From: Candidatus Uhrbacteria bacterium
GTDB lineage: Bacteria; Patescibacteriota; Patescibacteriia; UBA9934; GWF2-40-263
Length of the DNA stretch: 42,527 bases
NCBI GenBank assembly: GCA_003523645.1
Contig: DOFP01000007.1
Span: 1-42,527, forward strand
Reading direction: 5' to 3'
Shown: positions 124-31,502 of the stretch, piece by piece
Position numbering within the stretch: position 1 is the stretch's first letter
Layout of the letters: each line of letters starts with the position of its first letter
Notes under the pieces: model-generated
Told to the model about the DNA's origin: nothing
The model's database searches: none
Seen by the model: only the letters and a program-made list of their open reading frames with translations
Position numbers and translations under genes: made by a program

Positions 124-416
124 TGAAATTTCTCCTGAATTTGCTGTTTACTAGAATTACATACATTTATGTAGAAATAGCGACTTGTTTATAGTATACA
201 TAATATCTTTTGTCAATATTTGTCATCATTTTTAAAGAACTAAGATAGTTGGTATACTTTTAGTGAATCTTTAAATGTAGGACTTTCACATTTGGATGCA
301 GACCAAGGAGAAATCGAGGCTTTTTGTGAGCTGTACTCACAGATACAGTGAACAAAAAACGTAGATTTCGACACAGGTATGCGCCGAATGAGAAAGTTCT
401 AAAATGATATTTTTCT

Positions 417-2750: not shown

Positions 2751-2907
2751 AGGACCTTTCTCGTTTTGCCCATTTTGGTCTTACCATGCACCATCTGGTG
2801 CATGGCTTACGGGGACCCCAGTTTTTCTCGCTGTACTTGATTGAGTACAGCTCGATAAAACTTGCACCCCGTGCACCAAAACTAGTCTAAACTGAGAAAG
2901 TCCTAAC
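2751..2907 (+). repeat. Copy 1 of a ~156-nt repeated structured element (candidate ncRNA or MITE-like element) in the 3' region of the ABC gene
   Basis: About 85% identical to 17283-17438. Near-complementary ends AGGACCTTTCTC / GAGAAAGTCCT. Internal hairpins CCATGCACCAtcTGGTGCATGG and CTGTACTtgattgAGTACAG. No ORF. Confidence 0.7.
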
Positions 2908-3010
2908 GATATCTTTCGTATGGAAACATTCCTGGTTCAAAAACAACTTTTCCGCAAGAGAAAAATTGGTTTTGTTCTCGTAAGTGTTCACAACTGCATT
3001 CAATGCATTC

Positions 3011-3042
3011 AAAAAACCTCAACCTCACGTTGAGGTTTTTTG
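3011..3042. terminator. Rho-independent terminator (bidirectional hairpin)
   Basis: AAAAAA-CCTCAAC-ctcac-GTTGAGG-TTTTTT. Confidence 0.7.
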
Positions 3043-3075
3043 AATCTTATTATTTATTCTTAAAAGGAAACCTGT

Positions 3076-13473: not shown

Positions 13474-13920
13474 ATGGTTCATGAAGTATCAGCGGGCGGG
13501 CTTGTATTCAAACGAACTCCAAAAGGAATTTTGTTTGCCATGATGAAAGATTCGTATGGAAAATGGACGTTCCCAAAAGGACATGTAGAATCTGGAGAAG
13601 AAAAAGAAGAGGCTGCTGCCCGGGAAAGCATGGAAGAACTGGGTCTAGAACAAATTCGACTTCTCGAATCATTAGGACAAATTACGATTTGGTTTCGTGA
13701 TCGTTTTGTAAAAAAAGGAGCGCTGGTTCACAAAGACATTCATTATTTTTTATTTGCGACTCTTCCGGACACAGAATTGTTTCCTCAAACATCTGAACAT
13801 ATCCAGGAAGCTGCATGGATTCCAGCAAAGGAATTATTGGAACGATCTTTTTATCCGGATCTTGTTCCTGTGATCAAACGTGCGCTCATGTACGTGCGTA
13901 TTCACGGAGGAACCGTTTAA
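13474..13920 (+). CDS. Nudix hydrolase
   Basis: Nudix box GHVESGEEKEEAAARESMEELGLE. Start uncertain (in-frame alternatives at 13366 and 13393 overlap the ctpA end). Confidence 0.8.
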   Translation: MVHEVSAGGLVFKRTPKGILFAMMKDSYGKWTFPKGHVESGEEKEEAAARESMEELGLEQIRLLESLGQITIWFRDRFVKKGALVHKDIHYFLFATLPDTELFPQTSEHIQEAAWIPAKELLERSFYPDLVPVIKRALMYVRIHGGTV

Positions 13921-14712: not shown

Positions 14713-15174
14713 ATGAAAGTGATTTTACTTCGCGATGTCAAAGGTCAAGGGAAGGAGGGGGAAGTGATTGAGGTATCAGAAGGATATGCCCGAAATTTTC
14801 TTTTTCCTCAAAATGTAGCTGTTCAGGCAACAGAAACTGTGTTGCGAGAGCGAAAAGAGCGTGAAGTAATCGCAGAAAGGCGTGATAAAAAGGCCTTGGA
14901 TGCTGCAGCAAAACTTTCCGCAGCTTTAGATGGTTTTGAGGTTGAAATTCCACAAAAAGTGAATGAACAAGGAGGACTATATGGATCTGTACAGGCACAG
15001 GTGATTGCAGATGCATTGAAAAAGCAGAAATTTGCAGTGACTTCTGACATGGTGAGTATGCGTGAACCCATAAAAGAAGCGGGTGATTATTCTGTGACTA
15101 TTAACCTTCCACATGGATTTGAAGCTCTTGTTACAATTCATATTGTTTCAAAAGGAAAAGCAGAAAAAGTATGA
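14713..15174 (+). CDS. rplI: 50S ribosomal protein L9
   Basis: [37 protein letters not shown] is the canonical L9 N-terminus. Confidence 0.95.
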
Positions 15175-16802
15175 AAAAATATATTTTTGTTGTGGGTGGT
15201 GTTTTGTCTGGTGTGGGAAAGGGGGTGACCTCTGCTTCCCTTGGTGCCATTTTTCAGTCCAAAGGATTTTCTGTGACGGCTGTAAAAGCAGATCCATATG
15301 TGAATGTAGATGCAGGGACTATGAATCCAATTGAACATGGAGAGGTATTCGTCACTTGCGATGGGGATGAGACCGATCAAGACATGGGAAATTATGAACG
15401 ATTTTTGGATGTTGATTTGCGTTCAGAAAATTACATGACGACCGGTCGTGTGTATCAAACCGTGATTCAAAACGAGCGTGCCATGAAATATAAAGGTAAG
15501 TGTGTTCAGGTCGTTCCTCATATTCCAGAGGAAATGATTCGTCGCATTCAAGGAGCTGCTGTTCAAAATAAAGCAGATATAACAATTGTAGAAATCGGAG
15601 GAACAGTAGGAGAATATGAAAATATTTTGTTTTTGGAAGCCGCTCGCATGATGAAGCTCGAACATCCAGATGATGTTGCTTTTGTTCTTGTGAGTTATCT
15701 TCCCGTTCCATCACATCTTGGAGAAATGAAAACAAAACCAACACAGCATGCGGCTCGTGCACTTAATAGTGTGGGAATTCAGGCCAACATGATTATCGCA
15801 CGCGGACCGCAAGAATTAGATACGCCGCGCAGAGAAAAACTCGCAGTGCATTGTGGGGTTCCAAAAGATCGCTGTATTGCGGCACCGGACATTGATACGA
15901 TTTATCGTATTCCTCTTCTTTTGGAAGAACAGGATGTAGGGAACAAACTTTTGCATGACCTGCGTGTCAAACCACGTCCATCAGAATTATCTTCTTGGAA
16001 GACATTTATCACTCATATTGAACATGCGCGCCAGAATGTGAAGATTGCGGTTGTAGGAAAATATTTTGGCACAGGACAATATACACTTGCTGATTCCTAC
16101 ATTTCCGTTATCGAGGCGTTGAAACATGCAGCTTGGTCACATCGGTATCGTCCGGAACTTACATGGGTCAGCGCAGAAGATTTTGAAAAGGATCCAAAAA
16201 CCGTTTCGCGTCTTGCAGAGTTTGATGGAGTTCTTGTTCCTGGTGGATTTGGGTCGCGTGGTATTGAAGGAATTTTGACAGCGATTCAATTTGCGCGAGA
16301 AAAAAAAATTCCGTATTTCGGATTGTGTTATGGTATGCAGCTTGCGTGTGTGGAAGTTGCCCGTCACGTTGCGAGACTTGAAGGAGCAAATACGATTGAG
16401 GTTGATTCAAAAACATCACATCCGATTATTCACATGAATCCGCTTCAAGCCAAAAATATTCTTGAACGAAAATATGGAGCCACCATGCGGCTTGGAAGTT
16501 ATACTTGTACATTGAAAAAAGGATCCAAGGCTCGCAAAGCATACGGAATAGATACGATTCAAGAACGTCATCGTCATCGATACGAATTTAATAATACCTA
16601 TCGAGAATCATTAGAGCAGTCTGGATTGGAAATGGTGGGAATAAATCCTGAATCTGACCTTGTGGAAATTGTTGAACTTAAAGATCATCCATTTTTTGTT
16701 GGGGTTCAGTTTCATCCAGAATTTCAGTCCCGTTCCATGCGACCACATCCATTGTTTGCTGCCTTTTTAGCTGCGGCTGGAAAACAAGCAAAAACAGCTT
16801 GA
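15171..16802 (+). CDS. pyrG: CTP synthase
   Basis: [29 protein letters not shown]-terminus. Glutamine amidotransferase motif GLCYGMQLA...HRHRYE. 543 aa. Confidence 0.97.
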
Positions 16803-16995
16803 CAAGAAGACCGTGAATCGGTAGAGTCTTTGCATCTTTGGTTTGTATTTTTGTTTTTATTTATTAGAAAACTTCCGTGTTTGAGCCTAGTTTTAGGAGC
16901 AAGCGAGTACCGGAAAAAGCCGTACTTCACAAGTACGGCGTTGAGGAACGGAGCTTGCGACAACAAAAAAAGCCAAACACGGAATTTTTACTCAT

Positions 16996-17277
16996 ATGGC
17001 ACATAAGAAAGCTGCCGGCTCTACCCAGCTCGGCCGCGATTCCCAAGGTCAGCGCCTTGGTGTCAAAATCGCGGACGGGCAAGTCACACGAGCTGGTCAA
17101 ATCATTGTCCGCCAACGCGGCACAAAAATTCATCCAGGCGTGAATGTTCGTCGTTCAAGCGATGATACACTTTATGCCGGAACAGATGGCATCGTCCATT
17201 TCAAGAAAAAGAAAGCTTTAAATTTTCATGGTATTTTACAGCTTCGCACATACGTGTCTATTGAAAAAGCTTTGTAA
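16996..17277 (+). CDS. rpmA: 50S ribosomal protein L27
   Basis: [24 protein letters not shown]...[10 protein letters not shown] is the canonical L27 sequence. No rplU immediately upstream. Confidence 0.95.
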
Positions 17278-17282
17278 ATTGT

Positions 17283-17438
17283 AGAACTTTCTCATTTTGC
17301 CCATTCTGGGTTTACCATGCATCGGATGGTGCATGGCTTACAGGGATCCCAGTTTTTTCTTGCTGTACCATTTAGTACAGCTTGATAAAACTTCCACCCC
17401 GTGCACCCAAACTGGTCTAAAATGAATAAAGTCCTAAG
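17283..17438 (+). repeat. Copy 2 of the ~156-nt repeated structured element, downstream of rpmA
   Basis: Collinear with 2751-2907, including CCATGCATCggatGGTGCATGG (compensatory substitution keeps the stem) and CTGTACcatttaGTACAG. Confidence 0.7.
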
Positions 17439-17461
17439 TCGTGGTTACTTTAAATAGATTT

Positions 17462-17500
17462 AAAAAATCATTCAGACAAAAATGTTTGAATGATTTTTTG
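17462..17500. terminator. Rho-independent terminator
   Basis: AATCATTCA-(12 nt)-TGAATGATT followed by TTTTT. Confidence 0.7.
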
Positions 17501-30808: not shown

Positions 30809-30905
30809 TGATACCTCCTTTTATGGTTGAAGTTTCTAGAATGATCCTAACTTGTTTAAAAAGGATGTCAACAATTTTTGCTTGTCGGATGCGTTTGTTT
30901 TGCTT

Positions 30906-31502
30906 ATGATGGGGTATGTTCACATTTTTATGAAACTTCCTTTGATTTTTCGAAACATGCAAAAACAGTTTGTGAATGCTCAACAAGGGCGTTCAGCTGT
31001 GATACATGCATCAAATGATGCACTTAATCGTTCAAAACGTGCGATTTTTGCATTACATCGCGGAAACGCACAAACAGCGACAACACTGTTAGAAGAGGCT
31101 AAAATCTGTTTTCAAGATGCAGAACGACGATTTCGCACTAGTCCGGAATTAAAACATGAAGGTTCTTATCAGGCAGCACGTGAAGAGTATACGGAAGCAA
31201 TGATATTTGCGGATTATCTTCGTGGTGGACGCTTTTCCATATCAGAGCCACGGATTGCAGATCCGCAGGTGTTTCTTGCAGGTCTTTCTGATGCCACAGG
31301 TGAGATTGTTCGGTATGCTATTCGTCAAGCAACGCATGGAAATCGAGAAGAAGTCACACGTGCTCACGAGACCATTGAAATGATTATCCATTTTCTTTTG
31401 GAACTTGATTTGACCGGATACCTTCGTCAGAAGTTTGATCAAGGAAAAAAGAATTTGCGTACCATAGAAGATATCCTTTACGACTTAAGTCTCAAATCCT
31501 AA
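30906..31502 (+). CDS. Translin-family protein (putative)
   Basis: All-helical ~198-aa protein. C-terminus LRQKFDQGKKNLRTIEDILYDLSLKS matches the translin signature (human LRKRYDGLKYDVKKVEEVVYDLSI). Start uncertain (ORF track begins at a TTG at 30852). Confidence 0.55.
   Translation: MMGYVHIFMKLPLIFRNMQKQFVNAQQGRSAVIHASNDALNRSKRAIFALHRGNAQTATTLLEEAKICFQDAERRFRTSPELKHEGSYQAAREEYTEAMIFADYLRGGRFSISEPRIADPQVFLAGLSDATGEIVRYAIRQATHGNREEVTRAHETIEMIIHFLLELDLTGYLRQKFDQGKKNLRTIEDILYDLSLKS

Follow-up and report, generated by a model that had tools for sequence, protein, structure and literature searches.

The window analysed here, a stretch of 42,527 nucleotides, derives from Candidatus Uhrbacteria bacterium, a groundwater organism of the Candidate Phyla Radiation (CPR) found in the Rifle groundwater data sets and probably an episymbiont. 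Three copies of a short repeated element were found between its genes. Copy A occupies positions 2750–2905 of the + strand (156 nt) and begins 29 nt past the stop codon of an ABC-transporter gene (the stop ends at 2720). Copy B lies at 17282–17436, also on the + strand (155 nt), and begins 4 nt past the stop codon of rpmA (17275–17277). Each is followed by a host intrinsic terminator-like hairpin on the + strand, which is located outside the element (3007–3045 downstream of copy A and 17461–17500 downstream of copy B). The two copies are 85% identical and collinear from end to end (BLAST E 3e-38), and the two conserved blocks of the element occur in the window at A and B alone, with a chance expectation of 0. 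The original prediction had described two collinear + strand copies of about 85% identity, each upstream of a rho-independent terminator, which agrees with these results apart from coordinates that were off by 1–2 nt; its statement that each copy starts about 30 nt after a stop codon is correct for copy A and wrong for copy B.

A third copy in the window, overlooked when two were counted, was detected by a sensitive search of the window. This copy E (278–401, minus strand, 124 nt) represents a short subfamily and lies in the 5' leader of the ABC-transporter gene, with a gap of 15 nt between its end and the start codon (417). Promoter-like hexamers, which are consensus matches only, are present just upstream of copy E (231–258) and abutting copy A (2717–2744); the number of such hexamers was not above that in shuffled sequences.

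Several other genes of the window were noted. The region 38439–41057 encodes a protein of ~854–872 amino acids with a major-vault-protein shoulder domain (PF11978), and ~30852–31502 encodes a protein with a Translin domain (PF01997). These two families are found mostly in eukaryotes or archaea, and their presence in a small CPR genome is unusual. In the region 14713–17277 the gene order is rplI (L9)–pyrG–rpmA, and rpmA has no rplU (L21) upstream; the usual arrangement is an rplU–rpmA operon.

Further copies, whose search the original prediction had suggested, were found elsewhere in the same species by a metagenome scan and subsequent look-ups. Copy C is located at 545–697 of contig L014, the same site as 13680–13832 of L035, directly past the terminator of a hypothetical gene. 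Copy D (9529–9684 of L033) is located in the gap between ligA and gatC, on the opposite strand. Thus, the element is known from five copies of 124–156 bp, three of which were found through targeted searches. They are distributed over two contigs within the sampled sequence of ~137 kb, three facing one way and two the other, and at each of the five loci the encoded proteins carry names from Ca. Uhrbacteria GW2011_GWF2_41_16 / GWC2_41_11.

The copies were used to build a covariance model, which was run over this ~137 kb (~106 kb in the region of the window and ~32 kb surrounding copy D). Strong scores (81–177 bits) were obtained for the five copies only, including A (151.5 bits), B (154.3 bits), and E (81.2 bits). 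Contig-by-contig extension, which added ~95 kb of sequence, revealed no new main-family copy and no transposase. The exact two-block pattern matched one of 185,579 species representatives, Candidatus Uhrbacteria bacterium GW2011_GWC2_41_11, whose matching contig terminates inside copy A. In metagenomes, the exact-pattern scan returned copies C and D and one chance match (L011); such two-block scans miss contigs known to carry the element and are uninformative on copy number. No match to the element was found in viral contigs or, using blastn, in plasmid and phage collections.

All insertions are in intergenic DNA, in either orientation and often a few bases from a stop or start codon. Copies A and B are in 3' UTRs, C follows a terminator, D occupies an intercistronic gap, and E is in a 5' leader. 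Relative to the adjoining genes, copies A, B, and C have the same orientation, and copies D and E the opposite one.

Comparison of the five copies revealed a common 13-bp terminal inverted repeat, TAGGACTTTCTCA...TGAGAAAGTCCTA, with 0–3 mismatches. Full copies open with TAG(G/A)AC(C)TTTCTC and close with its reverse complement. The ends of copy A, TAGGACCTTTCTC...GAGAAAGTCCTA, are near-complementary as had been claimed. In copy E the repeat is TAGAACTTTCTCA...TGTGAAAGTCCTA, and in copy B, the most decayed of the five, it contains mismatches (TAGAACTTTCTCA / TGAATAAAGTCCTA). The sequence similarity between copies stops exactly at the terminal inverted repeats, and the flanks are unrelated save for 5-bp duplications.

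Directly outside the termini, a perfect 5-bp direct repeat was observed in four of the five copies, with a different 5-mer at each site. These target-site duplications are ACGAT for copy A (left 2745–2749, right 2906–2910); CATTT on the element's strand, that is AAATG on the + strand, for copy E (402–406 and 273–277); TTTGT for copy C, inside the T-tract of the preceding terminator; and TAAAA for copy D. Copy B is flanked by AATTG and AGTCG, which match at three of five positions and represent no intact duplication; its termini are the most degenerate of the five copies, as expected of an older insertion. The TA found at each end of the element is part of the inverted repeat, and the duplicated 5 bp of AT-rich target DNA lie outside it. 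Identical 5-mers around a random 155-nt segment of the window occur at an empirical rate of 0.0013 per site, and therefore four out of five by chance would have a probability of ~1e-11.

The empty sites can be reconstructed by removing the element together with one repeat, giving ...GGATATAATACGATATCTTTCG... for copy A and ...AAATTTAAAATTATGTCA... for copy D. In the latter case, removal with one TAAAA yields the compact arrangement ...TTT-TAA-AATT-ATG..., in which the ligA stop codon is four bases from the gatC start. Restoration of this compact junction indicates that copy D is an insertion into an operon junction.

With regard to coding capacity, no reading frame is conserved across the copies, and a protein-database search with the six-frame translation, aimed at spurious ORFs called on other copies, found no match, which bears out the claim that no ORF is present. 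The whole window was also compared with Rfam 15, as had been recommended. At the gathering score tRNAs only were detected, and around A and B matches with E values up to 10 were at chance level and mostly on the host terminators; the single match inside a copy was fiv_FSE, with 13 bits against a gathering score of 53. Thus, the element matched no Rfam family. Neither the Pfam gene lists of the ~137 kb nor a terminal-repeat search revealed an autonomous insertion sequence or transposase with the termini of the element, and the gene lists sampled contained no Y1 transposase (RAYT) gene.

The element is an imperfect palindrome predicted to form a long rod closed by its complementary termini, with one hairpin at the side (hairpin 1) and a central hairpin. 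Hairpin 1 is located at 2783–2806 of the + strand in copy A, CCATGCACC-ATCT-GGTGCATGG, and the same hairpin is found at 17314–17337 of the + strand in copy B. The central hairpin of copy A (2829–2852, + strand) is GCTGTACT-TGATTG-AGTACAGC, with the general form GCTGTAC...GTACAGC. The conserved internal tract mentioned in the original prediction is also present, CACCCCGTGCACC. Over the tested copies and strands, the folds were more stable than shuffled sequences, with z-scores from -5.7 to -9.8. For the + strand z was -8.5 (A) and -5.9 (B), and for the - strand -9.3 (A) and -7.4 (B). In A, B, and E the more stable fold is that of the element's minus strand, and in D there is little difference between the strands; the transcripts of A and B would nevertheless be the plus strand. 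No consistent excess of G-U pairs was observed on the transcribed strand.

Copy E lacks hairpin 1 and has a similar central hairpin, which is the only part of its interior recognisably shared with copy A; the rest of the interior has diverged. Compared with the other copies, its termini are 79–100% identical and its interior 54–56% (shuffled mean 50.5, maximum 55). This pattern of conservation fits selection acting on ends that would be bound by a transposase.

To count pair changes, copies A, B, C, and E were aligned with two strain variants and compared with the common fold. In hairpin 1, eight pairs are invariant and a ninth shows a one-sided change (C-G to U-G). The central hairpin differs among A, B, and C by loop changes, a 2-nt indel, and one closing pair lost in B, and no both-side pair change was found anywhere among these three copies. 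The two internal hairpins reported earlier are real, whereas the compensatory changes said to maintain them are not, since no both-side change separates A and B. Ten both-side changes were counted, all of which come from the single sequence E. Because copy E retains full-length pairing despite these changes, there may be some constraint on the palindrome at the DNA or RNA level. Copy E is one lineage, and a palindromic transposon end can explain the kept rod as well as RNA selection can. The covariance model that had been called for was built, and the both-side changes that could support its structure are confined to one sequence, E; none was found among A, B, and C, and the five sequences are too few for a statistical test.

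We then compared the loci among assemblies and strains. The same copies were found at the same sites in independent JGI, ENA, NCBI, and Logan assemblies, and the layout is unchanged in the strain variant P0027. In several independent assemblies, contigs terminate within copies (L007, L010, L022, L023, L024, and L037), which is the usual behaviour of dispersed repeats. No empty site or presence–absence polymorphism was detected: at each locus, the copy was present in all of the several contigs extending to the site. The nearest other homolog of the flanking ABC protein among 5.8 billion proteins is 52% identical, and there is accordingly no orthologous empty site in relatives for comparison. 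The sole structural variant is a 31-nt deletion in copy D of the GWF2_41_16 assembly (L032 / L013), which takes a whole arm of the element including the left terminal repeat (L032 9560–9704 vs. L033 9529–9684).

Annotation is also affected at copy D. Deposited gatC proteins of 111 and 116 amino acids begin inside the element and a call of 101 amino acids does not; the starts inside copy D are an annotation artefact caused by the element. Within copy A, positions 2877 and 2884 differ between strains, being CACCAAAACTAG in the window and CACCCAAACTGG in L020 (12116–12271), and the L020 version agrees with the family consensus. The window strain may thus have acquired two recent substitutions, or gene conversion may have taken place between copies.

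Two additional rod-like, imperfect palindromes of the window gave weaker matches to the covariance model. Palindrome G (16865–16990, 126 nt, best match on the - strand, 28.7 bits) occupies the gap between pyrG and rpmA, stops 5 nt short of the rpmA ATG, and also folds very stably. A promoter-like site, TTGACA-17-TAGAGT at ~16799–16827, was read by eye and is absent from the promoter scan; it would place palindrome G in the rpmA leader. Palindrome F (42058–42191, + strand, 134 nt, 41.6 bits) is located directly past the stop of a DPBB-domain gene (ending at 42057) and before ftsE, with fold z-scores of -9.8 (+ strand) and -12.5 (- strand). Gene callers extend ftsE through palindrome F (282–288 amino acids), and homology to FtsE starts from residue 63 (MIRLKNV...), at ~42259. 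Both palindromes are single-copy in the sampled DNA. They were rejected as diverged family members because their sequence identity to the family was not above the shuffled level; they may be distant relatives of the element.

Hairpin 1 was also found on its own. One and the same ~170-nt segment lies downstream of both of two tRNA-Gln genes, whose anticodons are TTG and CTG (L025 13919–14121, L042 11150–11360, and L048 1–220). In this segment, two copies of TGCACCGTATGGTGCATGGCGGAGCCATCAAAAGA flank a terminator. The hairpin CCATGCACC-GTAT-GGTGCATGG of this segment is hairpin 1 of the repeated element and occurs twice per tRNA-Gln gene, and the tRNA 3' end, GGAGCCAT, is repeated after the solo hairpin. 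Possible origins of the segment are an att-like remnant or a REP-like unit; alternatively, the element may have taken its hairpin module from here. Several assemblies break at this duplicated segment. A copy of the element or an insertion sequence had been considered at the contig breaks after a DUF4419 gene, which are explained by the ~170-nt duplication downstream of tRNA-Gln. The T-tract after the terminator of the DUF4419 gene varies among assemblies in length and composition (L025 ~13840–13880 vs. L026 and L042). Another candidate, TAGGACTTTCGTCAT (L042 11692–11706), shares 10 nt with the start of the terminus and begins at the stop codon of an 85-amino-acid GIY-YIG gene; this match is compatible with chance (~0.3 expected in the sampled DNA) and was discarded.

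Taken together, the repeated element is very probably a family of miniature inverted-repeat transposable elements (MITEs), non-coding and inserted between genes at least five times in the Candidatus Uhrbacteria genome. The copies are small and dispersed in both orientations, have terminal inverted repeats and flanking direct repeats, lack coding capacity, and fold into a long stem-loop; occupied and empty sites that differ between strains were not seen among the contigs reaching these sites. MITEs are characterized by size, inverted repeats, duplications, absence of a transposase gene, and a long stem-loop, and are usually under 200 bp and at most about 400 bp (PMC3184786). The original prediction had offered either a structured RNA or a MITE and favoured the former; its alternative is supported here, and its preference is not. 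It had also stated that many more copies with target-site duplications at random locations would point to a MITE. Such copies were found, in modest number and, as regards placement, in mixed contexts.

The best-supported mechanism is cut-and-paste transposition of a non-autonomous DNA element. The termini would be recognised by a DDE-type transposase acting in trans, which would make 5-bp staggered cuts in the target, as general background on insertion sequences and the MITE definition in PMC3184786 suggest. Lying between genes and the promoters or terminators of these genes, the copies are probably cotranscribed with their neighbors to form very stable RNA rods, as in the case of Correia, ERIC, RUP, and bcr1. 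By the same analogy, these rods may incidentally affect mRNA stability or translation, which would be a side effect rather than the raison d'être of the element.

Bacterial MITEs reviewed previously include Correia/CREE of Neisseria, ERIC of Enterobacteriaceae, RUP of Streptococcus pneumoniae, and Nezha of cyanobacteria (PMC3184786). The Uhrbacteria element resembles bacterial MITEs in being non-coding and intergenic, in its inverted repeats, target-site duplications, and long stem-loop, and in a size within 100–170 bp; many of them are cotranscribed with neighboring genes, as may be the case here. It differs in its host, which belongs to a different phylum (Candidate Phyla Radiation), and in having no match in Rfam, plasmids, or phages. 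Membership of the Correia / ERIC / RUP type was rejected, since these IS630-type elements duplicate TA, whereas the Uhrbacteria element duplicates a variable 5 bp. Its 13-bp inverted repeat begins TAGGAC and has no known partner insertion sequence.

A close resemblance in size and layout was found with bcr1 of the Bacillus cereus group, which is described as a transcribed intergenic repeat of ~155 bp with tens of copies (Okstad et al. 2004; PMC6542083, PMC3184786), a closing stem with two independent stem-loops, and 5-nt flanking repeats (PMC6542083, PMC3184786). Both elements are ~155 bp, restricted to one species group, intergenic, and similar in predicted fold, and both have 5-nt flanking repeats. 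On the other hand, the flanks of bcr1 are described as always TTTAT, with site-specific recombination proposed, whereas those of the Uhrbacteria element differ per site (ACGAT, CATTT, TTTGT, and TAAAA). Considering these flanks and the host, which is Ca. Uhrbacteria and not the Bacillus cereus group, a bcr1-type repeat was rejected.

Two additional classes were compared. Like TIMEs, which are Tn3-derived non-autonomous miniature elements, the Uhrbacteria element is non-autonomous and has 5-bp target-site duplications. Tn3-family inverted repeats are ~38 bp and begin with GGGG; the repeat found here is 13 bp and begins with TAGGAC, and no Tn3-type transposase was found in the sampled genes, so that a Tn3-derived TIME was rejected. 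REP sequences are GC-rich units of 20–40 bp that carry a GTAG or CGTC tag, are RAYT-dependent, and cause no target duplication; the Uhrbacteria element has none of these properties. Similar to REP, BIME, and REPIN, the Uhrbacteria copies are intergenic palindromes of a kind that can sit in 3' UTRs and stabilise mRNA, and the solitary copies of hairpin 1 beside the tRNA-Gln genes are reminiscent of REP units. A size of 124–156 bp, the presence of 5-bp duplications, and the lack of RAYT in the sampled gene lists led us to reject a REP/REPIN assignment.

The extremely stable folds could be taken as a sign of a functional family of structured RNAs (small RNAs, or 3'-UTR or mRNA-stabilising elements) under selection for RNA structure. 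Copies A and B, each with a stop codon before it and a terminator after it, are thus probably transcribed, a promoter-like site (2717–2744) abuts copy A, and the rod of copy E was kept through its 10 both-side pair changes. We consider such a family very improbable: all of these changes come from E and none from A, B, and C, copies D and E run opposite to host transcription, copy C lies past a terminator, and in four of the five copies the fold of the complementary strand is at least as stable. In addition, the most conserved part is the termini rather than loops or junctions, one strain tolerates the loss of a whole arm of copy D, no Rfam family matches, and the exact two-block pattern occurs in only one of the 185,579 species representatives. 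RNA selection also leaves the 5-bp duplications unexplained.

The same duplications bear on a REP/REPIN-like or recombinase-dependent palindrome, spread by a RAYT or IS200/IS605-type transposase or by bcr-like site-specific recombination. The whole element is palindromic, and hairpin 1 stands alone downstream of two tRNA-Gln genes much as a REP unit would. REP/REPIN and IS200/IS605 derivatives have no target-site duplication and a fixed short motif beside the insertion (PMC3733652), whereas the flanking 5-mers here are duplicated and different at every site. The copies are also far larger than REP, and the sampled gene lists contain no Y1 transposase, which makes this origin highly improbable. 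All data are metagenome assemblies, and one may ask whether segmental duplication or misassembly could have produced the copies. Given that independent assemblies from four sources have the same copies at the same sites, and that similarity ends exactly at the inverted repeats with flanks unrelated apart from the 5-bp duplications, the chance of such an artefact appears negligible.

A further possibility, which goes beyond a MITE family and which we regard as unlikely, is that the rods have been co-opted in this reduced CPR genome as RNA modules in the mRNAs of essential genes, where they would control decay, processing, or translation. In that case, palindrome G in the leader and copy B in the 3' UTR would lie at either end of the rpmA mRNA, with copy D placed between ligA and gatC and copy E in the ABC-transporter leader. 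Hairpin 1, found also near the two tRNA-Gln genes, would be a recognition site for a protein or RNase. Mobilisation might then need no resident transposase, being provided for example by a phage enzyme or an enzyme of the episymbiont's host.

MITEs are common in bacteria, and CPR genomes are small and usually regarded as poor in mobile elements. A full-text literature search found no paper describing a MITE in a genome of the Candidate Phyla Radiation / Patescibacteria. The element is of an ordinary kind and reveals no new mechanism; it is notable only for its host group, for which the search gave no earlier report. With a MITE family, the breaks of several assemblies of this organism at these sites find an explanation, as do gene-calling errors such as the gatC starts in copy D; the over-extension of ftsE through palindrome F is a similar error whose link to the family is unproven. 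The copies offer a marker for strain tracking in the Rifle groundwater data sets. By analogy with other bacterial MITEs, these insertions would place very stable hairpins inside the transcripts of essential genes.
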